NCBI GenBank assembly: GCA_020059745.1
Contig: JAGVBK010000002.1
Coordinates: 104,301 to 168,300, forward strand
Reading direction: 5' to 3'
Length of the DNA: 64,000 nucleotides
DNA from: Candidatus Shapirobacteria bacterium
GTDB lineage: Bacteria; Patescibacteriota; Microgenomatia; UM-FILTER-40-11
Shown: in pieces, positions 2,947 through 63,097 of the stretch
Position numbering within the stretch: position 1 is the first letter of the stretch
Layout of the letters: each line of letters opens with the position of its first letter
Position numbers and translations under genes: made by a program
Notes under the pieces: model-generated
The model's database searches: none
What the model was told of the DNA's origin: nothing
The model's input: only the letters and a program-made list of their open reading frames with translations

Positions 2947-5900
2947 TTAGTATACCCTAATTTTTTCCTGATTCAAAGCAACAATCGCGCTTATGGTTGC
3001 GAGCAGCAAGGTAAAACCAAAATATTGAAGATACTGGGGGATGAAAATCAGAACTACTCTGCTCTCGTTTTCCGAGCCAGGCAACACCCAACCGTTTTCC
3101 CAATTATTGACAAGAACATGATCATTAATCTCCCGGCCAACTAAAGGCAGTAGAAAAGCGGGTCTTTTAATTAAGCTTTCTCCTTCGAAGTAAGCTTTCC
3201 AGCCTTCATGATAAGACTGGGATAAGACAAGAAGGCTTTCCTGCCGTGGGGGGACATCGATTTTATAAAGGCTGGGGTTGGGGTGAGAACTTTCCGCCTT
3301 CATGTATTTAATTGGAGCCAAAGAAACATCTTTTTGGAAACGAATTCCAGAAAGAAAGTAGTATGGAATTGGGTTGATAGTAATCATCCCCAAATCATTG
3401 ACAGATTCATGCCTGCCAATAGAGATATTGTCAAAATGGAGCCGGTAGCCAATGCCTGATTTCTGCATCGGTGGTTGGATAATGAACTTCTCTCCTCCTT
3501 CTTTTTGAAGATAAAATTCCTGGTCTGCCCTTCTTGCACTTTGATTTTCCAGCCAAAAAAGCAGGCTTTTGCCTTTGACATTTTCATTCTCAACTTTAAT
3601 AAGATAGCCGAATTTATGAAGCAAATTCTCAAAACTAAAAGTGGCTGAGCAGTTGGTGGAATTAACGGCGCTAAGCCTTAGAAAGTTATTCCCCTGTTTA
3701 TTTGCAATTTCATTTTTGACTGTACCGAAACTGAATTGATTGCAGTTTTTAGCTTCTAAGCCTCCGGCAGTCGGATTAACTTCACCGCTGAAATAGCCCC
3801 CAACCTTAGGAACAATCACCTCGATATTCCTTCCCTGAACATTTACCTTTGGAATAAGATACTTAACATCGCTAAAGTCCCCGGGGTTTACCCAAATGAG
3901 TTCTCTGCCGTCAAAATCTGGAAGCCTTAGTTCATATGACAAAACCTCTTGAGGCACTTCCTTTGAAAAAATAAAGCTGTCTTTTGTTTCCTTAATATTA
4001 AAATCAAAACCTTCTGTCCCCCTGCCGGTAAAAATGGAACGGAACGGATAGTAGTAGTCCGCTTCTTTTTGCTCTGAATATATCCCCAAATCCAAAAAAG
4101 CCCGGTCATAACTTCCCCACCTGTAAGAAGAAGCCACTTTGGCAGTATCGGTAGAAATAAAGACATAATTTTCTATTGGATAGTCCAGATTAACTTTATA
4201 AAGCAGGATATTGCCAAAAGTTTTTTCAAGGCTGAATTTTGGCGAAGAAAACATCTCTTCAAGCTCGTCAAAACCCAGAGCTTTATAGTTGCCGGTATTG
4301 TAAATGTTTTTATCGACAAGCGCGTATTCTATTTGGTACTTATCAAATATCTTTTCAAATATTTCATTTTTCCTTGAAAAAAGAGCATACGACATTTCCC
4401 AGTAATAGTTCTCGTTTTGGCTGCTCCACATGTCAAAATTACGGTCTAGAATCGGCTGGTTAATACCATACCAAATAAAACCCGAGCCGGTATAATTCCA
4501 ACGGTAAAGACTCCAACCCCAAAAACTTGATTGGGGAAAATCGGCAATTCTCCCGTCTTTACCGCTTTTTTTAAGATAAGAAAAAAGCTCAAAATAGTTT
4601 TCGGGAATGCGGGCTTTTACCCTTGGGTAAAATAATTTACCCTGAAAAACCGGATACAAATAAAACACGGGCAAAAAAGCCAAAAGGACAATGATTAAGA
4701 GGCTCTTTTTTGAGTTTGCCTTTGAACTTAACCAAAAACAAAATGCACCAAAATACAAAGAAAGGCAAAAAGCAAGCAAAGCGGAAAACTTAGTAAAAGG
4801 AAATCTGAACATCTGAGAAAATAGCGGAAGCTTAAAGAAAGCTTTTGACAAAAGCGAAATAACCGGTGTTTCGTTGGCTAAAACTAAAAAAGACAAGAAG
4901 AAAACCGGCAAAAAAGAGATTAATTTTTTAAATTTTAAAAATGAAATTAAAGCGCCTGCCGTTCCTAAGAAAAAAAGCAAAAACCCAAAGAAAGAAATCA
5001 CCGGATTTTCGAGGTGTCCTGTCCAAGGCGCCATTAGATAATTCACTGTTCCGTTCTCACTTGTTTCCGTGGTATCAAACCAAAAACCTTTAAGAAGAAC
5101 GACATTTTTTAGATCCCCGTATTTTTTGTTTTTAAGTAAGTTGTCTTCGGTTGTCATCTGGCTAATTTTTGACTGGACCGTGATATTAACATCCGAAAAG
5201 ACAAAATAAAGATTTGGCAAAAGCCAAAAAGCGTTAGTGATAAAAATAAAAGCAAAAGAAAGCAAAACCCTCTTAAGACTGCCTTTGTTTTGCAAAAGAT
5301 AAACAAAAGAAGCCAAACCCCAAGCCATTAAATAGACCGCAAAAAAGGTGCCTACATATCCCTGTGGCACAGCCAGCAAATTCACCAAAAGAAGAAAAAT
5401 AAGGCTCTTTTTATCCCTTTTCTCCAGGAAATTAAGATTAACTAAAAACAACCAGGGCAAAGAAGCAAAGTGGTGAGAAAAAGCTTCAAAAGGAACATAA
5501 AAAAGCTGAATTGTGGCCAGGTTAAAAAGATAAAAGACAGAGCCGGCCAGAGCGGAAAGTTTTTTCTTACCTTTTCCTGCCAAGAGAAAAGAAAGTAAAA
5601 AGTAAATCCCCAAAGACCCCAGGTAAAGCATTAGAAAGTGGTAAAAATATCTGAGAAACGAACTTGGGAGAAACAAAGAAAAAATCCATAAAATTAGCTG
5701 CCTTGGCAAGTCTGCGGCATGGCCCATGCCACCCATTAAACCCAAGCCCTGATACTCCTGCCAGGAAGCAAAAAATGATCTTTTAAGATTAAGGCCAAAA
5801 TCAAACTCAGGATGAAGGTTATCCCAACCTGAAAGCCATGTTCCGGCATGAGAATTTGCAATGCTTATAGCCAAAAAGACGGCAGTTAAAATCAGCACCG

Positions 5901-8063: not shown

Positions 8064-8279
8064 TTAAAACCCCTTTTCTTTCATGCACCTTTGGTATGAG
8101 TCCCAATCAGGGACACGGGCGCTGCTGCCGCCCTCAGGGTTCTCATAAGTATTGACGCCCACTGTCATACACCCCTGAACAGCATTGTTTTTTATCATTC
8201 TTTCCGATTGCCTGTATCCCAAAACCACCGCTCCAATAAGGGCGGCGCCGATTAAGATAGTTCCGATATCTTTTCTCAT
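8064..8279 (-). CDS. Small single-pass membrane protein, unknown function
   Basis: The internal Met (MRKDIGTILIGAALIGAVVLGY...) gives a 71-aa protein with one TM helix and two Cys. The longer 94-aa version has an unlikely N-terminus. Confidence 0.45.
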   Translation of the reverse strand: MRKDIGTILIGAALIGAVVLGYRQSERMIKNNAVQGCMTVGVNTYENPEGGSSARVPDWDSYQRCMKEKGF

Positions 8280-8403
8280 TTTTTCACCGATAAAAGCATA
8301 AAATAAATTTTTATACTTTAGTCGATGCGTAACCCGAAGAGTGTTCATTTACCTTATGAAGGTAAACTACTAACCCTCCGGGTTACGCGATCGGCATGCA
8401 ATG

Positions 8404-9549
8404 CTACTTGACAAGTCCCAGATACTGCTCCCGCCAGAATGTGGCTGCAATAGCCATTCCTTCCCACCCTACGGGAATTCTGGCTTTGGGATAGCTTGGG
8501 ATCAATATCAAGTTTGGGTCGGTCGGCACCTCCAGACGCTCTCCGTCGAACGGAAATTCGAACGGATTCCTGATGAAAAACGCGTCTTGGGGAGGTGCCT
8601 GCCAGTTGCCGTTGCCCAGATCGACGAGCCTGACACTCGGTGCAAGGCCGAATGTTGAGCGGATCCACGCTTCGTTCACCTGTGAAGGCGAAAAAGCGGG
8701 GGTCGCACTGGGAACGACGGGCGTTGGGGCAGCTAGCGGAACTGGTGTCTGAGTTGGCACAACTTGGGCTACCAAAGTAGCTGTCGGCTGTACCAAACTT
8801 GAGACCTGACCGATTTGACCAACTGAGGTCACAGGGATCACGCCAGTGATCCTGTGATACTCGTCAATACTGAAAGGCCTGAACGTGATCCCCTGTACAG
8901 GACCACACCAACCAGCAGGAATTCCTGACCCAACTGCTTCTGGGGGAAAACCCTCTTCTAGGGTCCTCCCGTGCAACTCCCGCTGTCTGCGGTCCGCCAT
9001 CCAGCCATCTTGCCGGAAAGGAGTGAAGTTACAAACCTCAATGGAAACAATATTCCCAAAGAGGTCTTTCTCCTCCGGCACCTTCCAGCTCCATGGCTCA
9101 CCCCTAGCCCTGCTAACCTCGCTGGGCTCAATGGACGGCTGAGCCTGTCTCCTTGTTGCAAGGATAACAAACTCATCCACTGACCTTGGCCAATCCTCCA
9201 TGACCTCAAGGCCTAGAACCCTGATGTCGTCCAGAGTCTGACCGCCAGTCAGAGTAAGCCCGAAAGCCTGAACCCTAGGTGACGGTGCCATTGCAACCGT
9301 CGGTTCGGATTGAACAGCCTCCTGACCGGGAGTCGGAGTCACAAGGACCTCAACAACCCGAGTCACTTCGACCGGAACCTCCTTCTCGACAACGACGGTC
9401 TCCTTGACCACCTGAGGGACGACCCTGGTGACCTCGACCGGGACCGTCTCCTTGACGATCTCGGGCGTTGGTGTCAGAGCACTTTCCCTGAGCGCACAAC
9501 CCGTGATCATCACGATAGCCACCATTACAACCAGGAATATCATCTTCAT
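8404..9549 (-). CDS. Lipoprotein, unknown function (GC-rich island)
   Basis: 381 aa. It has a signal peptide with lipobox MITGC and an AGGAGG-type SD upstream. An N-terminal tandem KETV.VEVTRVV repeat and Pro/Thr linkers are present. I recognised no family. Confidence 0.6.
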   Translation of the reverse strand: MKMIFLVVMVAIVMITGCALRESALTPTPEIVKETVPVEVTRVVPQVVKETVVVEKEVPVEVTRVVEVLVTPTPGQEAVQSEPTVAMAPSPRVQAFGLTLTGGQTLDDIRVLGLEVMEDWPRSVDEFVILATRRQAQPSIEPSEVSRARGEPWSWKVPEEKDLFGNIVSIEVCNFTPFRQDGWMADRRQRELHGRTLEEGFPPEAVGSGIPAGWCGPVQGITFRPFSIDEYHRITGVIPVTSVGQIGQVSSLVQPTATLVAQVVPTQTPVPLAAPTPVVPSATPAFSPSQVNEAWIRSTFGLAPSVRLVDLGNGNWQAPPQDAFFIRNPFEFPFDGERLEVPTDPNLILIPSYPKARIPVGWEGMAIAATFWREQYLGLVK

Positions 9550-9559
9550 CTCAACCCTC

Positions 9560-10072
9560 CTAATCCCTCTGATGTCTCCGAAGAAACCCTGGAATGTCCA
9601 ACTCCGAACCGGGCGGATCCAGAGGATTTTCAGGCGTCTGCCTTTCCTCTTTCATCTCCGCCGCCCTGAAATTCAACCGTTCCAATTCCTCGATAAGCTC
9701 CTCCCTTTTCTCGTTCAGCTTCTTGATCTCATTTCTCGCCTGCTCGAGTTGAACTCTTTTTTCGCCAACGACACTAGTCAACTCTGCCACAGTCTTCTGT
9801 AGTTCGAGAACTTCTCCGTACAACTCATTTTTTCGACGCTGGCCTTCCTCAATCTTCTCGTCTGTTGTTGAGGCAACTTCCTCTTTCCTCCCTCTCACGT
9901 TCAAGATTATGGAAAGAACGAAAAGCAAAACCCCAACGACCAGGAGAATCCAGACCCAAGGCTCAAAAATCGCGAAAAAGTCGACGAGGACAAGCCCAAC
10001 AACAATATTTACCAGGCTCACCCCCAAAAACACAGTACCAACAATAAGTAAGACCAACACCAGGCGCTTCAT
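9560..10072 (-). CDS. Membrane-anchored coiled-coil protein (GC-rich island)
   Basis: The start is taken at MKRLVLVLLIVG, which has an AGGAGA SD 7 nt upstream. There are two or three TM helices, then a heptad-like Glu/Lys-rich segment (LQKTVAELTSVVGEKRVQLEQARNEIKKLNEKREELIEELERL). Confidence 0.55.
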   Translation of the reverse strand: MKRLVLVLLIVGTVFLGVSLVNIVVGLVLVDFFAIFEPWVWILLVVGVLLFVLSIILNVRGRKEEVASTTDEKIEEGQRRKNELYGEVLELQKTVAELTSVVGEKRVQLEQARNEIKKLNEKREELIEELERLNFRAAEMKEERQTPENPLDPPGSELDIPGFLRRHQRD

Positions 10073-10285
10073 GTCTTCTTCTCCTTTGCATGCCGATGTC
10101 AAAGAACTACTTTTGGCTCCTTCCAAGAACCGCAATTGGTCCTCTTTCTGGGCCAAAAGACCGATTTTTCAAAATCGGAATAATACCCACTATTAATGAA
10201 CATCTTTCCGACTTCAAAAGACAACCAGCCGGAGAGAGAAAGATACGCTTGCGCGTAAACAAACTCTCTCCGGCGAGATGCCATC

Positions 10286-11068
10286 CTACTCGAACCAAAC
10301 CACTGCGGTCCAGACCTTAACGTGCCCCGGCCCCTTGAATTTGTCTAGGTTTTCCCCAAGAATTGGGTTCCACCCGGTGACCAAGGCATTCTCGGGCACA
10401 GCGAGCATGACAGGGTTTCCACCACTGTTATAGTCAAAGCTGCACCCATCCTTCCGAAGGGCCCAGACACCACCAGTGACAACATTGGCTTGAAGCCAAT
10501 CGATGCTTGGGCAACCCTCGGGTTGGTCCGGAATCGGGAGCCTCGGCAAAGGCGGATTGAACACCACTGGGAGAAACAAAATACTTTCTCCAGGTGTCGG
10601 AACCACCGTTGGCTCGGCGGTTGCCATTGCAGTTGGTTCCGGCGTGGCGGTCGGCGTTGCCGTTACAGTTGGTACTGTAACCGTTGGCTCGGCCGTTGCC
10701 GTGGCGCTCTGTGGCTCAATCCACAGAACCCCGTCCCAAAATTCTCCCGAACCAGGTCCTTCCACCAGAAGGTCTTTTTGGCCCTCCGGCTCCGGCCGCG
10801 GATCCCAACCAGTCATCTTGGATCCACCCGCGGGGACAACGAGCAAGATCGGCTCCTCAAACGGGCCTCTTCCGCTCTCGAAAACAAAATCACAACCTTC
10901 GTCGGGCCCGACTTTCCACATCGAGAGTTCACCCCCGATGTTTTCCGCGACCCACTCGAGATCCGGGCACTCTTGCGGGGGTTCCGGAATGGCAACCTCC
11001 GCTGAGAGCTGGAACGGCAAAACTGCCGCCAGCGCGACCACAACCGCGAGTACAAGACTGCGCTTCAT
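10286..11068 (-). CDS. Secreted protein with internally duplicated 2-Cys domain (GC-rich island)
   Basis: The start is taken at MKRSLVLAVVVALAAV (signal peptide), with an AGGAGGGG SD. Two homologous ~85-aa domains (CPDLEW...GCDF...TGWDP and CPSIDW...GCSF...TGWNP) are joined by a Thr/Pro/Ala linker. Confidence 0.6.
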   Translation of the reverse strand: MKRSLVLAVVVALAAVLPFQLSAEVAIPEPPQECPDLEWVAENIGGELSMWKVGPDEGCDFVFESGRGPFEEPILLVVPAGGSKMTGWDPRPEPEGQKDLLVEGPGSGEFWDGVLWIEPQSATATAEPTVTVPTVTATPTATPEPTAMATAEPTVVPTPGESILFLPVVFNPPLPRLPIPDQPEGCPSIDWLQANVVTGGVWALRKDGCSFDYNSGGNPVMLAVPENALVTGWNPILGENLDKFKGPGHVKVWTAVVWFE

Positions 11069-11216
11069 TTCCCCTCCTGGGATCATAAGGATGGCAAATA
11101 CTCAATGTGCTTCTGGTCTCACCAGCCAGATTGGCGCTTACGCCTTTCTAGTTATTGAAACCAGAAAAGGAAATTGAACTCCTAGTTTCCTTTCCCGGCT
11201 TCAACCGGAAACTTCT

Positions 11217-11849
11217 TTATTTTTTAAGACGAAGCAGCATGTATCCGGCAAGACCGGCAATTGAGGTTAAAGGGGCAACGAAAAGCAAACTAGAACCTGT
11301 GGCAGGAGTTTCACCTAAAACTTTTTTAACTTTGGTAACACAAACTTTAGAAGTGTCTTCTCTTTCTTCACCGCCGAATTTAGCCCTGACAGTGTTTTTG
11401 ACATCACAGTCAAAATCTTTATCACTCGGAGTGGAAACAACAACTGTTTCAATCTGTTTCTCTTCTGATTCGCCAGGTCCTAAATCTAAAATATCAAAAG
11501 TAAGGCTTCCTGACTCAAGCTTTAACTCAGCCGGAAGAAAGTCTGTAACAGTCACTTTTTCAAAAGTGCTGTTGCTGTTGTTAATGATTTTTATTCTGAA
11601 AATAACTTTTTCGCCAATGCTGAATTTATAGCCTTCAGGAGTAATGTCGGCTAAATTGTCTTCGAACCTTTTGTCAATCGGGCTCCAAACCTTTTTATCT
11701 AAAACAAGCTCTTCAACTTCGGTACAGACTTCGCCGCCGCCGTATAAAGATTCGCAACGGATTGCTCCAAAAGCATTTTTAGGAGAAATAATAAAAGCCG
11801 CAATAAATAAAATTGCGGTTAACAAAGCATGTTTCCTGTCCATTTTCAT
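11217..11849 (-). CDS. Surface protein with DUF11-like repeat domain and C-terminal sorting signal
   Basis: It has a signal peptide and a V.F.I...N.....F..V.V.D.LP..L core shared with the 12846-13490 protein. The C-terminus reads GETPATG, then a hydrophobic helix and an RLKK tail, a variant of LPXTG. Confidence 0.65.
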   Translation of the reverse strand: MKMDRKHALLTAILFIAAFIISPKNAFGAIRCESLYGGGEVCTEVEELVLDKKVWSPIDKRFEDNLADITPEGYKFSIGEKVIFRIKIINNSNSTFEKVTVTDFLPAELKLESGSLTFDILDLGPGESEEKQIETVVVSTPSDKDFDCDVKNTVRAKFGGEEREDTSKVCVTKVKKVLGETPATGSSLLFVAPLTSIAGLAGYMLLRLKK

Positions 11850-16888: not shown

Positions 16889-16926
16889 TATAGCAGTTTA
16901 GCTGAGATTTTTTCCAACAAAAAATC

Positions 16927-16952
16927 CGCCTATTCGGCGGACTTCTTGAAAA
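16927..16952 (-). terminator. Intrinsic terminator of ncRNA candidate 2
   Basis: The minus strand reads UCCGCC-GAAUA-GGCGGA followed by UUUUUGUU. Confidence 0.7.
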
Positions 16953-17232
16953 CAATCGAGAGCCAGAGAGAGAATTTGGATTTGCGGGAAACGCTGGCTT
17001 AGCCAACGAATCTCATCCTCTTTCCTCTCTGGCTCTCACCTCCCCAAAGGGAGAAGATAAAGACATCGGACAAAACCTTCTTCTCATTCTCTCCTCTCCA
17101 GCAGCCATTGATGGAAAAGAAAGGTTTCCTGTGCCCCAGCTCACAGTTAGAGATTGGGTTTCTCCTAGTCTTTTTTTTAAAGGACTCCGCACAAAAAAAC
17201 ACTTTCTGCTTTCTTAGGAAGTGTTTGTGAGG
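16927..17232 (-). ncRNA. Structured ncRNA candidate 2 (unclassified)
   Basis: It is bracketed by a TTGACA-17-TATTAT promoter and an intrinsic terminator. It contains a 13-bp perfect helix (16968-16980 with 17025-17037) and further hairpins. There is no ORF with an SD. Confidence 0.5.
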
Positions 17233-17238
17233 AAGATA

Positions 17239-17267
17239 ATAATAACAAATGCTATTTTTCTTGTCAA
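17239..17267 (-). promoter_or_regulatory. Sigma-70-type promoter for ncRNA candidate 2
   Basis: The minus strand has TTGACA (17267-17262), a 17-nt spacer and TATTAT (17244-17239). Confidence 0.6.
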
Positions 17268-17272
17268 GCCCA

Positions 17273-17300
17273 ACAAAAAACCCGCCTATTCGGCGAGTTC
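17273..17300 (-). terminator. Intrinsic terminator of ncRNA candidate 1
   Basis: The minus strand reads CUCGCC-GAAUA-GGCGGG followed by UUUUUUGUU. The loop and 3' arm are almost identical to the terminator at 16927-16952. Confidence 0.7.
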
Positions 17301-17645
17301 TTTGAGAAAACAAGGGAAAACGGATGGGGTCGGGGGAAGGCAACAATACATCAAGTGGTTTTAAAAACCCACAAAATGTATCTTTACCTTCCCGGGTTCC
17401 CCTTACCCTCCCGTTTGACGGGACCGACAGTTGCTTCTCTTTGGTTTGGTAAAAATACACCTTGCCTGGAGAAGCTGGCCCGCTTTAAGCGGAGCCAAAG
17501 GAAGTAGTCCGAGGATATCTGCGAATAAAAGGCAAAATCCCTCCTTTCCTTCAATCACTGCAGTGGCGGATACAACGCCGGGTCGGGGTAACCAAGCTTT
17601 TGTCTTTTGGGTCAGCTTGGTTTTTTAATCCGTTTTCCCTTTTAA
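17273..17645 (-). ncRNA. Structured ncRNA candidate 1 (unclassified)
   Basis: A 14-bp perfect closing helix (17312-17325 AAGGGAAAACGGAT with 17628-17641 ATCCGTTTTCCCTT) encloses about 300 nt that is visibly GC-richer and has several internal hairpins. A terminator follows immediately on the minus strand. The 5' end and promoter are uncertain. Confidence 0.5.
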
Positions 17646-38419: not shown

Positions 38420-38950
38420 ATGGCAAAAATCATCACTGTTCCTGATCCGGTTTTAAGGGAAAAATCAAAAGAAGTCTCTGTCGATAAAAAAACTCTTGAC
38501 TTGGTAAAAACCCTTAAGCAAACCATTAAAGAAAGCAAAGACATTAAAGGCGTTGGCCTGGCAGCTGTCCAGGTCGGTATTCCTAAAAGAGTCTTTATTG
38601 CTTATTCTGATGCAAGCAAAAAATTTTTAACCTTTATTAACCCGGAAATTACCTGGGTTTCCAAAAGACTGACTAACCAAAAAGAGCAAAAATTTGAAGG
38701 CTGCCTTTCCATACCTAATAAATGGGTTTTAATTAAAAGGCCAAAAGAAGTTAAGGTTAAATACCAAACCGAATCTGGCCAGACGCAAATAAGAAAGTTT
38801 TCCGGCCAAATGGCTACCGTTGTCCAGCACGAATATGACCACTTAAACGGTGTTTTGATTGTCGACCGGGCTTTGGAACAAAAAGAAAAAATTTATGAGC
38901 TGGAAAAAGACGAAAAAGGTGAAGAATATTTAAAAGAAGTGGCACTTTAA
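38420..38950 (+). CDS. def: Peptide deformylase
   Basis: Contains GVGLAAVQVG, EGCLSIP and QHEYDHLNG motifs. Confidence 0.95.
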   Translation: MAKIITVPDPVLREKSKEVSVDKKTLDLVKTLKQTIKESKDIKGVGLAAVQVGIPKRVFIAYSDASKKFLTFINPEITWVSKRLTNQKEQKFEGCLSIPNKWVLIKRPKEVKVKYQTESGQTQIRKFSGQMATVVQHEYDHLNGVLIVDRALEQKEKIYELEKDEKGEEYLKEVAL

Positions 38951-50146: not shown

Positions 50147-50176
50147 TTGCCAAGAAATAAATATAAATGCTATAAT
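50147..50176 (+). promoter_or_regulatory. Strong sigma-70-type promoter (extended -10)
   Basis: TTGCCA (50147-50152), an 18-nt spacer, then TGcTATAAT (50168-50176). Confidence 0.6.
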
Positions 50177-50248
50177 ATTAATAGCTTATAGTATTCATTG
50201 TCTGATAGCCGTTGCCGTCGTCTTCTTCCCCCAGGAAAAGGAGGCATC

Positions 50249-50434
50249 GTGGCAAAGCCGGCAAGAAAGGGCAATGGATCAAAGCCTCGGGGTGAAAAGG
50301 GTCAAGCCAGGCACAGAAGCGCCAGGCCAGTCATTCCTGATCCTTCTCCACTCGTGGCAGGCGGAGACTACAGTGACGAGAATTTGTTGGCAAGAGCCGA
50401 AAGGGGCCTGCTACATTCTCTGCACATCACCTGA
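50249..50434 (+). CDS. Candidate 61-aa basic protein in a GC-rich patch (or part of an ncRNA)
   Basis: AAGGAGG (50238-50244) lies 4 nt upstream of GTG 50249. The product is MAKPARKGNGSKPRGEKGQARHRSARPV.... The unit has its own promoter and terminator. No family recognised. Confidence 0.35.
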   Translation: MAKPARKGNGSKPRGEKGQARHRSARPVIPDPSPLVAGGDYSDENLLARAERGLLHSLHIT

Positions 50435-50451
50435 AGTCCCCCCTCCCCACC

Positions 50452-50505
50452 GGTCCGGTGTTGAAGCGCTGCTTGCAGCCCTTCTTTTTTTCACCGGACC
50501 TTTTT
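50452..50505 (+). terminator. Terminator-like hairpin
   Basis: GGUCCGGUG (50452-50460) pairs with CACCGGACC (50492-50500) and is followed by UUUUU. The loop is unusually long. Confidence 0.45.
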
Positions 50506-50559
50506 CTGGCTTTCTTCTACTCCCTTGCTTTTAAAACACTTTCATGCTATTATTTTTTA

Positions 50560-53089: not shown

Positions 53090-53872
53090 TTAAGAATTTA
53101 TTTTAAATTTTTCTCGAAATATTAACCAAGGAAACACAACTGTTGCCGTCCACACCCTTTTTAAGTGCCCCGGCTTTGTTAAACCTCGCCAAAGCCACTC
53201 TAAACCAATCTTCCGCATCAAAAAAGGCGCCCTCTTACTAAAACCCGTTAAAAAGTCAAGAGAGCCACCTATGCCGATAAACACTTTGGCGTTTATTTTT
53301 TCTTTATTGCCAATAATCCACTCTTCTTGCTTAACCATGCCGTGGCAAGCGAAAACAATTTTAAGCCCGCCTGCCGGATGGGCAGGTTTTAAATCTTGCC
53401 TGTCGGCAGACAGGTTTTCTATTTTAAATTCTAAGTTATCGAGGTTAACAAATTTGACCCGAGGGTACTTTTCAGATAACTTTTTAAAAAGAAACTCAGC
53501 TTCCCCTCTATCTCCTCTTCTGGCTCCGGCAATACCCACAGACCAGCCTTTACTATTAGCTGTTTCAAGTAAGCAGGAAACAAGATCAGCACCGCTTACT
53601 CTTTCTTTAACTTCCTTCCTAAATACTCTTGAAAAAAGAACCAAACCAAAACCGTCAGGAATGTTGATATCAGCCACTTTAAGGATTTCTTTGAATTTTA
53701 GGTTTTTTTGAGCTTCAACTAGAAATTCAGGATTAGGAGTAAAAATAATCAGGGGGGGCTTAGCCTCAAAACCTGGCTTTTCTTCAATTAACCCCTCAAT
53801 TTGGTCTAGCAAACTTGGCAGCTGAGTGCTATTTATGGGTACACCTAGAATATTAGCTATATTTCGGCTCAT
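53090..53872 (-). CDS. WecB/TagA/CpsF-family glycosyltransferase
   Basis: Contains PDGFGLV, GIGGSLDFLTG...RAP and GLEWLWR motifs. Confidence 0.8.
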   Translation of the reverse strand: MSRNIANILGVPINSTQLPSLLDQIEGLIEEKPGFEAKPPLIIFTPNPEFLVEAQKNLKFKEILKVADINIPDGFGLVLFSRVFRKEVKERVSGADLVSCLLETANSKGWSVGIAGARRGDRGEAEFLFKKLSEKYPRVKFVNLDNLEFKIENLSADRQDLKPAHPAGGLKIVFACHGMVKQEEWIIGNKEKINAKVFIGIGGSLDFLTGFSKRAPFLMRKIGLEWLWRGLTKPGHLKRVWTATVVFPWLIFREKFKINS

Positions 53873-58945: not shown

Positions 58946-58976
58946 TAATAAAAATTAATTAAAAGGGCAGAATTTG

Positions 58977-59049
58977 TGCCGCTGGAGGGAATCGAACCCC
59001 CAACCTTTCCCTTAGGACGGGACTGCTCTATCCGTTGAGCTACAACGGC
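58977..59049 (-). tRNA. tRNA-Arg (anticodon CCU)
   Basis: The reverse complement folds as acceptor GCCGUUG/CAGCGGC, D-arm GCUC-AACGGAUA-GAGC, anticodon loop GUCCUAA and T-arm GGGGG-UUCGAUU-CCCUC. Confidence 0.8.
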
Positions 59050-59115
59050 ATTTTGTCATAAATTTACGACATATGTATTTTACCTTAAATAGCCTCGGGA
59101 AACAAACCGAAAAAG

Positions 59116-59562
59116 CTAATAGCTAACCCTATCTCCTATTTCAATGCCATTTGCTTCGCACCAGCCTGAATTAACCTCAATTACTTTGTCTGCCGGTTCG
59201 CGGCTGGTATAGGTTTTCCTTGGGCTCTCAAACTCATGAGGTCCTGGCCTAGAAACGCTTTTGGCAATATCGACAATGGTTTCTCCTCTTACCCAAATAA
59301 TATCAATATCAAAATGCATCTTCCTCATCCAAAAGCCATAAAATCCAGGTTCTGGAAACAAAAAAAGCATACCGCAATCTGGGCACAAACTTTTTCTCTC
59401 CGACAAACCCTGCTGCCTTAGGCTGGACGTATCAGCAATTTCAACTTCAATTTTTTTTCCATTAATGCTTATATAGTTTTTGCCTTCAGTTTTATGATTA
59501 AAAAAAATCAGGCCAATGATCAGAAAGACAAGACCAAAAATTATAATGCGAAGCTTAGCCAT
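59116..59562 (-). CDS. DUF192-family protein
   Basis: It has a signal anchor and the pattern GL......L....GMLF.F......FWM....F.IDIIW typical of DUF192. Confidence 0.65.
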   Translation of the reverse strand: MAKLRIIIFGLVFLIIGLIFFNHKTEGKNYISINGKKIEVEIADTSSLRQQGLSERKSLCPDCGMLFLFPEPGFYGFWMRKMHFDIDIIWVRGETIVDIAKSVSRPGPHEFESPRKTYTSREPADKVIEVNSGWCEANGIEIGDRVSY

Positions 59563-59599
59563 GCTTTAATTTTAGCATCTCGGGTGTTAAGATTTAGGT

Positions 59600-61366
59600 A
59601 TGAAGAAAATTTTTTTTGCCTTCTTGTCTTTACTACTTTTTTTCTCAAAACCCGCTTTTGCCCAAAAATACGGCTCACACCCTTACATTATAAACAACTT
59701 TGAAGCAGAAATTGACCTTAACAAAGACACTTCTTTAACTGTAACGGAAAAGATAAATACCCAGTTTAATATCCCCTCGCACGGCATTTTCAGAGTAATT
59801 CCTGTTACCTATACTGCCGGAGCCAAAACAATTAATGCAGACTTTGAAATACTTTCCCTTACTGACGAAAGCGATAATCCTGTTCCTTATGAAACAAGCC
59901 GGCTCAAGCAAAGCGTGAATATCAAAATCGGTAATCCTGACAGAGAGATAACCGGCGAAAAAACTTACCTTCTAAAATACAGAATTAAAGGCATTGTTTT
60001 AAGGTATGAGAACCACGATGAGATTTACTGGAACGTTACCGGCTGGGAATGGGACACCTGGATTGTCAAAGCCTCGGCTACCATAAATTCTCCCTATGCT
60101 GAGATTGCAAACCATCACTGTTTTGTCGGCAGTTTCGGCGAAAAAGAAACCGACTGCAGTGTTCAGAGTAGTAAAAATAAAATTGTTTTCTCCGCTAACA
60201 CCCCACTTGAGCCGGGAGAAAACCTAACTGTTGTTACCGGTCTTAACAAAAATAACCAACTTGCCTTCCCTGGCTTTTTTGAAAGGACTTTAAAAATAAT
60301 TATTGATAACTCCGGCTATTTACTGGCTTTACTGCCTTTGGCAGTTATCCTTATTGCCTGGTATAAAAAAGGCAGAGATTTAAAGTATCAATCTGATAAT
60401 GTCTATATAAAACAAGATCCGAAAACAGCTAAGGCAAAGCCTCTTTTTGCCAGAGAACACCTACCCACGGTTTACTCACCAATTGAAGGACTTACCCCTG
60501 CTGAAATCGGCACCATTCTTGACGAAAAAATGGATATGAACGATTTAATTGCTGAAATTGTGGAACTGGCCAGACTTGGGTTTTTAGAAATAAAAAAGAC
60601 AGAAGAAAAAGGGTTTTTGGTCAATAAAACCAATTATTTGTTTACTAAAAAAGGCAAATCTCCTTCAAACCTAAAGGAACACCAGAAATTGCTTCTTGAG
60701 AAGCTTTTTAATAATAAAGAAGAGGTAACCCTGGAAAGCTTAAAAAACCGTTTTTACAAACATATTCCCGCTTTTAAAGACAAAGTTTATGTTTCACTTA
60801 CTAAAGAAGAAGTTTTCGATAAAGACCCCCAAAAGGTAATTAAAAAGTGGTATTTAGTCATATTTCTTATTGGCCTTGCGGTAAGTGTGGCAATATTTTC
60901 ATTATTCCCGACACAAGGTAACCCCTTTGTGTTTGTTGTCTTGGTCTTTTCGCTGGTTGCCTCTTTTTTGGTGGTCAGACACATGCCCAGAAAAACAGGC
61001 TGGGGATACTCCCTTTATAGGCAAATAAAAGGACTAAAATATTATCTTGACAAGGGAAAGTGGCGGGAAGAAATTGCTGAAAAAAATTTGTTCTTTCAGG
61101 AAATTTTGCCTCTAAGCATTAGCCTGGGTCTGGTTCACAAGCTTTCGCGCGAAATGGCTGATTTGGGTGTTGAGCCGCCAAGTTACCTAAACGGCTTTAC
61201 CGCTGCCAGCTTTTCTTCAGACTTTAGCAGCTTTTCAAGCAGTGTTTCCGGCAACTTAGGCTCCTCTCCCAGTGGCAGATCTGGTTTTTCGGGAAGTTCT
61301 GGGTTTTCCGGAGGCGGAGGCTTCTCAGGCGGAGGTTTTGGTGGTGGTGGCGGCGGAAGATGGTAA
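59600..61366 (+). CDS. DUF2207-like membrane protein with Gly/Ser-rich tail
   Basis: 588 aa with a signal peptide and an extracytoplasmic N-terminal domain. TM helices follow, and the C-terminus ends SGGGGFSGGGFGGGGGGRW. Confidence 0.65.
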   Translation: MKKIFFAFLSLLLFFSKPAFAQKYGSHPYIINNFEAEIDLNKDTSLTVTEKINTQFNIPSHGIFRVIPVTYTAGAKTINADFEILSLTDESDNPVPYETSRLKQSVNIKIGNPDREITGEKTYLLKYRIKGIVLRYENHDEIYWNVTGWEWDTWIVKASATINSPYAEIANHHCFVGSFGEKETDCSVQSSKNKIVFSANTPLEPGENLTVVTGLNKNNQLAFPGFFERTLKIIIDNSGYLLALLPLAVILIAWYKKGRDLKYQSDNVYIKQDPKTAKAKPLFAREHLPTVYSPIEGLTPAEIGTILDEKMDMNDLIAEIVELARLGFLEIKKTEEKGFLVNKTNYLFTKKGKSPSNLKEHQKLLLEKLFNNKEEVTLESLKNRFYKHIPAFKDKVYVSLTKEEVFDKDPQKVIKKWYLVIFLIGLAVSVAIFSLFPTQGNPFVFVVLVFSLVASFLVVRHMPRKTGWGYSLYRQIKGLKYYLDKGKWREEIAEKNLFFQEILPLSISLGLVHKLSREMADLGVEPPSYLNGFTAASFSSDFSSFSSSVSGNLGSSPSGRSGFSGSSGFSGGGGFSGGGFGGGGGGRW

Positions 61367-61662
61367 ATAAACGAACGAGGGGTAGCAAAACCACAAGGCA
61401 AGAAACTGCTTTGCCACCCCTCCGGCCACTACCAACCTGATACCATGGAGAGAAATGCTCCTCCCCATTCTCTCAGTAGCGGCAGAATGCCGGTAAAAAA
61501 GGTCCAAAAAAAGATTACCTCGAAAACCGCGACCCCCATCCATGCCAAGGCGCACAGCGGATCGAATCCCAGCTTTCTCATTTTGCCCCTTTTGCCAGCT
61601 AGGCACTTGAGCCTGAACGACGCTTAAGTCTGACCAGACTCTTAAACCTCTTAAAAGTGCTA
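61366..61662 (-). ncRNA. Structured ncRNA candidate (unclassified), strand tentative
   Basis: This is a GC-richer, ORF-poor patch. On the minus strand, an extended -10 TGGTATAAT (61678-61670) lies upstream. A long hairpin (61378-61422) with a U-rich tail lies at the far end. Several perfect local hairpins lie inside. Confidence 0.4.
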
Positions 61663-61701
61663 TATAGTAATTATACCAAAAGGTATCAAATTATTGCGGT
61701 T

Positions 61702-61935
61702 TCAGGAAGTTTTCTGAGGATCGGAAGTCTTTTGAAAAGAAACATCGACCCCTGTTCCGTTGATAGGAAGATGAAGCTTAACTATATCCCCTACCTGGGA
61801 AATCCCGATTTTGCCACCATTTTTATGGACTATGATTTTTAACGCACCCATAAAAGCATCCGCTGCCTCGGGACCAAGAATTTTTTTAAAAGCTTCTATA
61901 GATTTTGCTACTCGGTCATCTTCTCTTTCCGACAT
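61702..61935 (-). CDS. Hypothetical small protein
   Basis: The start is taken at MSEREDDRVAKSIEAFKK, giving 77 aa. No SD and no recognised motif. Confidence 0.35.
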   Translation of the reverse strand: MSEREDDRVAKSIEAFKKILGPEAADAFMGALKIIVHKNGGKIGISQVGDIVKLHLPINGTGVDVSFQKTSDPQKTS

Positions 61936-61960
61936 ATTGCTAAAATATATCCAAAAGAGC

Positions 61961-61989
61961 TTTAAAATCAACCCCCAAAATGCTAAAAT
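61961..61989 (+). promoter_or_regulatory. Promoter upstream of the tRNA-half-like leader and tRNA-Pro
   Basis: TTTAAA (61961-61966), a 17-nt spacer, then TGcTAAAAT (61981-61989). Confidence 0.5.
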
Positions 61990-61999
61990 TCTATTGATA

Positions 62000-62084
62000 G
62001 CGAGCGTAGTTCACCCGCCTGCAAAAGCTGACGCTTTAGCGTCTGCGGGCAGGTCGGTAGAATGCACGGTTCAGCCTGCCCGCC
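62000..62084 (+). other. tRNA 5'-half-like leader with GC-rich D-loop hairpin
   Basis: GCGAGCG-UA-GUUC-A[40-nt hairpin 62014-62053]UCGGUA-GAAU-G-CACGG-UUC..., then GCCUGCCCGCC. The D-arm is near-identical to that of the downstream tRNA-Pro. No matching 3' half lies nearby. Confidence 0.5.
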
Positions 62085-62095
62085 AACAACAACGC

Positions 62096-62170
62096 CGGAA
62101 TGTAGTTCATCGGTAGAACGCTCGGTTCGGGACCGAGAGGTAGAGGGTTCAATTCCCTCCATTCCGACCA
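62096..62170 (+). tRNA. tRNA-Pro (anticodon CGG)
   Basis: Acceptor CGGAAUG/CAUUCCG, D-arm GUUC-AUCGGUA-GAAC, anticodon arm CUCGG-UUCGGGA-CCGAG, T-arm GAGGG-UUCAAUU-CCCUC, with an encoded ACCA. Confidence 0.85.
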
Positions 62171-62194
62171 GCTTCTAAATGCTAAAATAAATAA

Positions 62195-63097
62195 ATGCCT
62201 AAAACTGTTGTAACAACTGGTAAGCGATTTTGCGATATTGACGGTCTTGCTTGTGTTGTTGCCTACAGTGAAATTCCCCAAGTTCGCCCTATTCCGGTAA
62301 TTGTTTCCACCTTAAACCACAGTATCAGTAAAGAAATAAGGCAATGGCCGCTTAACTTTTTAAAACATTATGAAGACGAGCCTGACACCAGCTATGTAAT
62401 TGTCGATGTTTCTGAGCCCGACCAATTCCCCCCCTTTGTCAAAGACGAAAGGATTATTGAAATAATTGACCATCATGTTGGTTTTGAAAATCATTGGCAA
62501 GAAAAAATCGGGGAAAAAGCAAAAATTGAAGAAATCGGTGCTTGCGCCACACAAATTTGGGAAGAATTTAAGCTTCGAAAGCCGGGAGCCAAAATGAGCA
62601 GTCTAAGCGCCAATCTTTTATATACTGCCATTTTGTCAAATACCTTAAATTTTCAGTCTTTCTGGACCACTGAGAGGGACAAGAAGGCCTTCGAAGAGCT
62701 TAAGGCATATGTTAACCTACCTCCAAACTGGATTTCCATTTATTACCTTGATCAGGAAAGAGAAATTTACCAAAAACCTGAGGTTGTTCTTAAAAACGAC
62801 ACTAAAATTCAGACCATAAAGGGAATGAAGTGTACTTTCGGCCAGATTGAGCTTTACAACAGCAGGGACTTTTTAAAACAATTCAGCGGGTTGGTGGAAT
62901 CTGTTTTAAAAGAATACGGCAGCGAAGCTTGGATTTTGTCCTCCCCCTGCATTAGCGAAGGAAGAAACTATCTCTTCACTAAAAATAAAACTTTAAAAGA
63001 CTTAATAAGCAGGGTTTTACAAGTCTCTTTCGAGGGTAATGTGGGAGTAACCAGGAAGATTTGGACCAGGAAAGAAATTCTTCAAAAAATTCAGTAA
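62195..63097 (+). CDS. DHH-family phosphoesterase (family II pyrophosphatase-like)
   Basis: 300 aa with CDIDGLACVVAYSE and IIDHHVG (DHH) motifs. Confidence 0.6.
   Translation: MPKTVVTTGKRFCDIDGLACVVAYSEIPQVRPIPVIVSTLNHSISKEIRQWPLNFLKHYEDEPDTSYVIVDVSEPDQFPPFVKDERIIEIIDHHVGFENHWQEKIGEKAKIEEIGACATQIWEEFKLRKPGAKMSSLSANLLYTAILSNTLNFQSFWTTERDKKAFEELKAYVNLPPNWISIYYLDQEREIYQKPEVVLKNDTKIQTIKGMKCTFGQIELYNSRDFLKQFSGLVESVLKEYGSEAWILSSPCISEGRNYLFTKNKTLKDLISRVLQVSFEGNVGVTRKIWTRKEILQKIQ

Follow-up and report, generated by a model that had tools for sequence, protein, structure and literature searches.

A 335-nt gap that standard annotation left empty, in the genome of an uncultured groundwater bacterium of the Microgenomates, Patescibacteria (Candidatus Shapirobacteria bacterium), is filled by what is likely an unannotated orphan small gene, a candidate of a known general kind that would be specific to this lineage. 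The gap lies within the 64,000-nt stretch analysed here (contig JAGVBK010000002.1, positions 104,301 to 168,300), termed the window and numbered from its first letter, and separates a plus-strand gene for a DUF2207 membrane protein from a convergent 77-codon gene on the minus strand. The unit that occupies it, at 61366-61678, is likely a minus-strand transcription unit of ~295 nt, and our tentative interpretation is a structured mRNA that encodes a small membrane peptide and resembles a type I toxin mRNA in design. Its transcription and translation, the occlusion of its Shine-Dalgarno (SD) sequence as a control step, and any toxicity of the peptide are what we infer from the sequence.

In the proposed arrangement, transcription would start from the extended -10 promoter TGGTATAAT and end at an intrinsic terminator beside the stop codon of the convergent DUF2207 gene. 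The transcript, rich in G+U, would be folded nearly end to end, beginning with a leader of ~80 nt that carries two hairpins and the SD-like sequence AAAGGGG. Pairing of this SD with a U-tract inside the coding region would occlude it and so hold translation down. The 50-codon frame would encode a single-pass hydrophobic peptide, its codons would themselves form the two hairpins designated H2 and H3, and the GC and G·U richness of the region would stem from this structure. From the 5′- to the 3′-end, the predicted elements are:

61670-61678, minus strand: extended -10 promoter TGGTATAAT, with a predicted start at ~61660-61664
61609-61641, minus strand: leader hairpin H1a (GAGUCUGG/UCAGGCUC), a minimum-free-energy helix
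61593-61605, minus strand: leader hairpin H1b (UGCC/GGCA), a minimum-free-energy helix
61586-61592, minus strand: SD-like AAAGGGG, 4 nt upstream of the AUG
61429-61581, minus strand: 50-codon open reading frame (ORF) with UAG stop, encoding MRKLGFDPLCALAWMGVAVFEVIFFWTFFTGILPLLREWGGAFLSMVSGW, with a predicted single membrane span
61522-61577, minus strand: hairpin H2 of 22 pairs, with G·U frequent among these, covering ORF codons 2-20
61495-61514, minus strand: U-rich segment UCUUUUUUUGGACCUUUUUU, with predicted pairing to the SD and the 5′-end (61642-61652)
61423-61492, minus strand: hairpin H3, 24 pairs in four helices, covering codons 31-50 and the stop
61366-61422, minus strand: intrinsic terminator, identified in the fold, with a 15-pair stem (61377-61422) followed by GUUCGUUUAUU

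The structure belongs to the minus strand. With significance expressed as a z-score against 200 dinucleotide shuffles, the 300-nt minus-strand RNA folds at -117.4 kcal/mol versus -96.2 ± 5.1 for the shuffles (z -4.14), none of which is as good, whereas the plus strand of the same 300 nt reaches -75.5 kcal/mol (z -2.57). G·U pairs make up 22 of the 95 pairs in the minus-strand fold versus 3 of 80 in the plus-strand fold, and the minus-strand RNA is 61% G+U. The perfect hairpins listed in the initial annotation are all present, namely GAGGGGU.GCAAA.../...UUUGCCACCCCUC at 61377-61423, GAGAGAA.../...UUCUCUC at ~61446-61473, CGGCAGAAUGCCG at 61480-61492 and AGUCUGACCAGACU at 61628-61641; these are, however, plus-strand hairpins, and differ from the strongest helices, which are on the minus strand and contain G·U pairs. 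Both the minimum-free-energy and the centroid fold of the unit are branched.

The stability is unevenly distributed. Across the window, scanned in 426 tiles of 150 nt, the minus-strand tile 61366-61515, the 3′-half of the unit, has a z of -5.6 and ranks fifth, whereas the tile with the 5′-half (61516-61665) is unexceptional at z -1.45, so that the significance resides in the 3′-half. Hairpin by hairpin, the minus strand is the more stable throughout: H3 has -33.0 kcal/mol (z -3.4, with none of 200 shuffles as good) versus -18.9 (z -1.7) for the plus strand, the terminator hairpin -24.5 (z -3.9) versus -19.6 (z -3.6), H2 -24.9 (z -2.75) versus -8.0 (z +0.59), and the leader hairpins at 61593-61641 together -19.3 versus -12.9, the former with a z of just -1.75. 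The helices predicted for the U-rich segment, which would close the 5′-domain, are weak and rich in A-U and G·U pairs. The initial description of the region as a GC-rich structured patch is thus borne out by its G+C content, 0.52-0.55 versus 0.41 for the window and comparable to that of the tRNAs of the window (0.53-0.59), and by the fold of the 300 nt as a whole; a further part of the GC-rich patch, at 61121-61365, is simply the Gly-rich tail of the DUF2207 gene.

The extended -10 on the minus strand and the U-tailed hairpin at the far end, both proposed in that annotation, are in place. The sequence TGNTATAAT occurs eight times in the window versus 1.3 ± 1.1 times in shuffles, none of 100 shuffles reaching eight, and is therefore a promoter type used in this genome, which makes the TGGTATAAT box at 61678-61670 a probable genuine promoter. 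The terminator hairpin is followed on the minus strand by the U-rich GUUCGUUUAUUU, a tail found on that strand only as the plus strand has CGGCCACUACC there, and adjoins the stop codon of the convergent DUF2207 gene; owing to its 16-nt loop, it was absent from the output of a simple terminator scan. There is no gene downstream of the unit on the minus strand, and it is therefore not a leader or riboswitch. A promoter scan found no plus-strand promoter inside the unit, the lone candidate seen by eye on that strand being a weak TGATACCAT at 61438-61446 that has no terminator.

Contrary to its designation as ORF-poor, the region has an SD-led, hydrophobic ORF of 50 codons between the 5′-leader and the terminator. 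The AUG is at 61581, the stop at 61429-61431, and the terminator stem begins 7 nt beyond the stop. This is the sole ATG of the unit with a strong SD-like context, the predicted anti-SD duplex of AAAGGGG (-7.6 kcal/mol) ranking among the best 3.6% when every ATG of the window is considered, and the same AAAGGGG is present upstream of long ORFs that start at 53872 and 8062. In the predicted ensemble the SD is 80% paired (unpaired probability 0.2), with the U-tract at 61508-61514, inside the ORF, as its predicted partner. The peptide has a maximum 19-residue hydropathy of 1.96, and in one JGI annotation the 50-aa ORF was predicted to be a gene. Among 3000 dinucleotide-preserving shuffles of the RNA, 13.8% have an ATG-initiated ORF of at least 45 codons, 1.9% such an ORF with this SD strength, 0.3% such an ORF with this hydropathy, and 0.07% have all three together, a figure that needs a several-fold discount, to the detriment of the coding interpretation, because the hydrophobic character was noticed after the fact and 0.07% thus overstates the evidence.

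Several further observations weigh against a translated peptide. By codon log-odds trained on 32 long ORFs of the window, the ORF scores 0.009 per codon, which is non-coding-like, as 50-codon pieces of real genes score 0.28 ± 0.125 (first percentile -0.01) and spurious ORFs -0.085 ± 0.14; two GC-rich, real-looking genes of the window still reach 0.18-0.20. The G+C content at third codon positions is 0.58 versus 0.39 ± 0.06. Only 4 nt separate the SD from the AUG, versus 8-9 nt between AAAGGGG and the starts of the two long ORFs, and most genes of this genome seemingly have neither an SD nor a leader. Two further frames are open, a minus-strand frame of 93 aa and a plus-strand frame of 60 aa; a Logan annotation, from a different gene caller, picked the 93-aa frame, which overlaps the 50-codon ORF. 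Neither the promoter scan nor reading of the sequence gave an antisense promoter-terminator unit that could provide an antitoxin RNA. Relatives of the peptide are missing from 5.8 billion protein clusters (word-indexed search) and from back-translated scans of viral and metagenome contigs, and phmmer against 1.84 billion representatives returned one spurious repetitive match only; there is likewise no match in Pfam, PHROGs, PADLOC or NCBIfam.

The likeness to type I toxin mRNAs (hok, tisB, fst, txpA, aapA1) is one of architecture. These also have their own promoter and a heavily folded transcript of ~200-400 nt, an SD occluded by intramolecular pairing, which is predicted here, a short ORF (20-60 codons) whose product is hydrophobic and spans the membrane once, and a strong terminator right after the stop; they too are lineage-confined, usually unannotated and located in variable regions. 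In silico, the unit has a small hydrophobic ORF on a structured mRNA to which ribosome access would be restricted, whereas a cognate antitoxin RNA was found neither by the promoter scan nor by a repeat search of the window. The unit differs further in having no sequence similarity to any family, in a codon usage that argues against translation and, relative to hok, in that its 5′-end would pair inside the ORF whereas the 5′-end of hok pairs with the 3′-end. Because the searches gave no antitoxin RNA, we claim no toxin-antitoxin module. Dual-function small RNAs (sRNAs) such as SgrS/SgrT, RNAIII/hld and SR1/SR1P are similarly structured, with their own promoter and terminator and a short ORF; in contrast to these, the unit has no nameable seed or target, and its ORF makes up half of the molecule.

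Searches for related loci used the DUF2207 gene as an anchor. A scan of genome contigs gave three contigs (L001-L003) at ≤45% identity, and the best DUF2207 homologues, 53% identical, lie on contigs (L005-L008) with other neighbours and no similar RNA. The word-indexed search missed the cluster of the query itself (59600-61363), although an exact look-up places this protein on several contigs; the Gly-rich tail may have saturated the list of candidates, and close relatives could have escaped. Covariance models were built for the 5′-domain (R1) and for H3 with the terminator (R2). In 128 kb of related DNA they matched only the unit's own sequence, and they had no match in 38 metagenome loci picked out by the tRNA-Pro gene (a further 212 kb), none of which encodes a protein of this neighbourhood. 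No homologue was found in these searches, and hence no covariation. Within the window, blastn and the two models revealed no repeats, paralogues or complementary copies of the unit, and blastn gave no match that would indicate a phage or plasmid origin.

One contig, JGI 3300007351 Ga0104751_1004117, is identical to the window sequence, and a single strain variant is available, Logan contig SRR10812145_54034 (2414 nt, 99.6% identical; designated L009), the only contig to extend into the RNA among those returned by exact look-ups of the neighbouring proteins. It differs from the window by nine single-nucleotide polymorphisms (SNPs), all transitions, five of them in the RNA at 61583, 61545, 61539, 61533 and 61428. 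This is 5 in 300 nt versus 4 in the other 2114 nt (p ~0.002, by a hand binomial calculation), so that this stretch changes at a rate no lower than that of neutral sites; constraint on the unit is weak. All three SNPs within the ORF are non-synonymous (A13T, M15V and V17I), which counts against the peptide reading, and each alters the first base of its codon, with a conservative amino-acid replacement. These three (61533, 61539, 61545) are on the 3′-arm of H2, exactly 6 nt apart, and the SNP at 61428, 117 nt away, has the same codon phase, an agreement with a likelihood of ~1 in 27 that may be chance. The frame and all of the helices are intact in both strains, with the variant folding at -117.6 kcal/mol versus -117.4 for the reference. 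The G133A change converts the U100·G133 pair to U-A, and U238C allows G186·U238 to become G-C. As 25-28% of random transition sets are equally structure-neutral, which is not significant, the SNPs provide no evidence for selection on structure. Neither covariation nor conservation thus supports a functional RNA, given the lack of a homologue in any collection searched and the SNP excess in the variant.

The evidence divides. Speaking for a small-protein mRNA are the order in which the elements are arranged and how rarely the ORF features arise by chance; the base composition, the way codons are used, the presence of other open frames and SNPs that change the amino acid speak instead for a non-coding RNA or for weak constraint. 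Most of these observations are reconciled by a structured mRNA that encodes a small hydrophobic peptide, and the orphan status and variability of the unit, being typical of type I toxins, are compatible with it.

A somewhat doubtful but substantial alternative is a lineage-specific, structured, non-coding sRNA of ~295 nt, acting as a riboregulator or by binding protein, with the 50-codon frame as a by-product of a G+U-rich sequence poor in stop codons. Structured RNAs are enriched in long GC-rich intergenic regions of AT-rich genomes (PMC6429828, PMC8723152, PMC11109978), which is the setting here, and an sRNA would account for the tRNA-like G+C content, the strand-specific and G·U-rich fold, the codon statistics, the three open frames, as expected of a stop-poor sequence, and the two substitutions G133A and U238C, which leave the fold energy unchanged. 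Set against this are the failure of R1 and R2 to match anything but the unit itself in 340 kb of related DNA, and hence the lack of covariation, the proportion of random transition sets that are just as structure-neutral, and an SNP density that argues against strong constraint. The fold also leaves few single-stranded stretches usable as a seed, the SD, ORF and hydropathy features are jointly rare by chance (0.07%, before the discount given above), and an sRNA in the form of a leader or riboswitch would lack a downstream gene on the minus strand.

A further alternative, a non-functional or decaying remnant, draws on the neighbourhood of the unit, in which the two adjoining genes are:

59600-61366, plus strand: DUF2207 membrane-protein gene (Pfam PF09972 and PF20990)
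61702-61935, minus strand: 77-codon gene with gene-like codon usage, 0.244 per codon

The product of the 77-codon gene carries the NCBI label 'hypothetical protein C4578_01350 [Candidatus Microgenomates bacterium]'. It is an orphan, the search having matched only the protein itself, and its structure model (predicted local distance difference test score 70) has no meaningful PDB match. The wider setting is defined by tRNA-Arg(CCT) and tRNA-Pro(CGG), which lie side by side as a conserved pair in related Patescibacteria, with divergent orientation and 80-130 nt between them in four of the loci compared (L038, L046, L043, L016) and in tandem in two (L031, L037). Two other loci have an ORF between the tRNA genes, of 208 aa with a LAGLIDADG-like motif in L028 and of 188 aa and helical in L052, both characterized by reading of the sequence. 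In the window the two tRNA genes (58976-62170 region) are 3046 nt apart, and the ~3-kb block that intervenes consists of a DUF192 gene, the DUF2207 gene, the folded unit and the 77-aa orphan. Because different genes are present between the pair in L028, L052 and the window, the site turns over; the tRNA-Arg/tRNA-Pro spacer is a turnover-prone hot spot, and this turnover fits an accessory, lineage-specific element. Accessory modules typically sit at such tRNA-flanked insertion sites.

The same site suits the idea that the stretch is spacer DNA left by rearrangement or insertion between the tRNA genes, of which only the terminator hairpin, used by the convergent genes, still matters. This is unlikely, even though it would accommodate the SNP excess in the one strain variant, at or above the neutral rate, the orphan status of the adjoining 77-aa gene, the turnover of the spacer, occupied by other, selfish-looking genes in L028 and L052, and a 5′-half no more stable than its shuffles. 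It would be improbable for a leftover to retain, in order on one strand, a promoter, a leader, an SD-ATG, an unbroken frame and a terminator; moreover, the frame and every helix have stayed intact in both strains, and in the 64 kb only four tiles outrank the 3′-half in stability. Less probable again is a more elaborate version of the peptide-encoding mRNA, in which the folded ~295-nt transcript both acts as an RNA and encodes a membrane-active peptide of 50 residues, together constituting a type I-toxin-like addiction or defence module, acquired in the tRNA-Arg/tRNA-Pro spacer of an ultra-small symbiotic bacterium and of a kind undescribed in Patescibacteria.

The unit is not a transfer-messenger RNA (tmRNA), 6S RNA, signal recognition particle (SRP) RNA or RNase P RNA. 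A search of the whole window with Rfam 15 at the gathering threshold gave no match in the patch, and one of the 1 kb at 61200-62200 with permissive filters gave nothing up to E = 10, so that assignment to any of these four families by covariance models did not occur. ARAGORN, with default settings, with the -ps threshold and in permuted mode, found no tmRNA and nothing credible, and at 80% thresholds made merely a nonsense permuted call, on the plus strand. The resemblance to tmRNA (RF00023 and the permuted families) to which the initial annotation had drawn attention is limited to a 20-nt string, GGGGGTCGCGGTTTTCGAGG, at 61537-61518 on the minus strand, which recalls a 5′-acceptor strand and D-loop-like region (GGGG...GGUUUUCGA), with GGGGGUCGCGGUUUUCGAGG resembling a tmRNA 5′-end; as GGGGGUCGCGGUUUUC, the string falls inside H2. 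The GGGGGUC string has no GACCCCC partner strand nearby on the minus strand and, as that annotation also recorded, there is no T-arm and no ACCA end. Downstream of the GGGG string, the 50-codon ORF, with ...SMVSGW before its stop, is the sole frame; there is no stop-ended tag frame, and pseudoknots are also lacking. The unit thus has no tRNA-like domain, no ARAGORN or Rfam tmRNA-clan match (up to E = 10) and, at normal ARAGORN thresholds, no tag peptide. With 6S and Ms1-type RNA polymerase-binding RNAs, abundant-type sRNA genes to which Rfam models are often blind in deep lineages, the unit shares a strong promoter, a terminator and a high degree of pairing; it differs in a multi-branched predicted fold with no long rod or central bubble, in a length of ~295 nt where 6S RNA has ~180-200 nt, in the absence of a covariance-model match (RF00013 included) and in its variability between strains. 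SRP RNA and RNase P RNA gave no match at the gathering threshold or at E ≤ 10, and neither CR-I/CR-V nor SRP domain IV motifs were seen by eye. That a very divergent member of these four families was missed by the standard models in so deep-branching a lineage is very improbable, for although GGGGGUCGCGGUUUUCGAGG looks like the start of a tmRNA and Rfam detects none of the four anywhere in the 64-kb window, the negative Rfam and ARAGORN results, the missing T-arm, ACCA end, GGGGGUC partner strand and motifs, the branched fold of ~295 nt and an SNP density unfit for an essential RNA all contradict it.

The genomes of Patescibacteria are tiny and gene-dense, and very little work has addressed their non-coding RNAs and small proteins. 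Should the unit be expressed, these genomes contain lineage-specific small genes that are unseen by Rfam and by gene callers, and a GC-rich patch with the look of an RNA gene in an AT-rich genome can turn out to be the mRNA of a small protein and not a housekeeping RNA. In practice, GC-rich, well-folding patches should be inspected for an SD-led short ORF before they are labelled as non-coding RNAs. The wider biological weight of this particular unit is probably small, because it is an orphan and varies between strains.

The initial annotation counted the unit as one of several GC-rich patches, more than the usual housekeeping RNAs would explain. This is correct, and the other two patches have no above-threshold Rfam match either; the simpler reading is that there are several small independent genes, and the other flagged patches do look like these and not like housekeeping RNAs. 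One has the same layout as the folded unit, with an extended -10, an SD, a short ORF and a hairpin:

50168-50545, plus strand: GC-rich patch with extended -10 TGCTATAAT (50168), SD AAGGAGG and GTG at 50249, followed by a hairpin

The ORF in this patch, flagged as 50147-50505 and located upstream of the L10 leader, has 61 codons (50249-50434), is SD-led and encodes a basic product with no Pfam or NCBIfam match; its G+C content is 0.56 and its codon score 0.08. The other patch, ~700 nt at 16915-17640 on the minus strand, is ORF-poor and appears to consist of two tandem units with near-identical terminators, CCGCCGAAUAGGCGG followed by U6GUUGG, at ~17270-17300 and 16915-16950. The minus-strand tile 17266-17415 has a z of -5.5, and the only Rfam matches are sub-threshold 'Trp_leader' matches to the two terminators.

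A leader that resembles the 5′-half of tRNA-Pro is present just 5′ of tRNA-Pro(CGG), at 61999-62095 on the plus strand of the window. It has an acceptor 5′-strand, a D-arm, an anticodon-stem 5′-strand and UUCGG with the CGG anticodon, and is followed by a near-invariant, GC-rich CCUGCCCGCC, a short spacer and the intact tRNA. Located immediately behind a TATAAT-type box, this arrangement is conserved in 11 or more of the 39 examined loci, including L046 (3729-3780), L049 (~783-842), L043 (~11275-11331), L028 (~3421-3477), L038 (8012-8095, minus strand), L024, L025, L027, L045 and L020. Its D-stem varies between loci through compensatory pairs (GCUC/GAGC, GUGA/UCAC, GCGC/GCGC and GUUC/GAAC), extra hairpins are inserted in the window, L038 and L020, and there is no Rfam match. 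The leader recalls the split-tRNA halves of Nanoarchaeum, with the difference that here an intact tRNA follows.

Many genes of the window have a TATAAT-like box ~7-15 nt before the ATG and no SD, for example those at 38420, 43301 (minus strand), 45753 (minus strand), 55384 and 61935 (minus strand), which suggests that leaderless mRNAs, or mRNAs with very short leaders, are widespread in this genome, with a strong SD in a minority of genes. The block at 8085-11265 has a G+C content of 0.56-0.64 in a genome at 0.41, with minus-strand z values down to -8.5 (8266-8415) and long GC-rich ORFs with positive codon scores at 8404-9549 and 10286-11086; it may be acquired DNA or a group of unusually structured genes.

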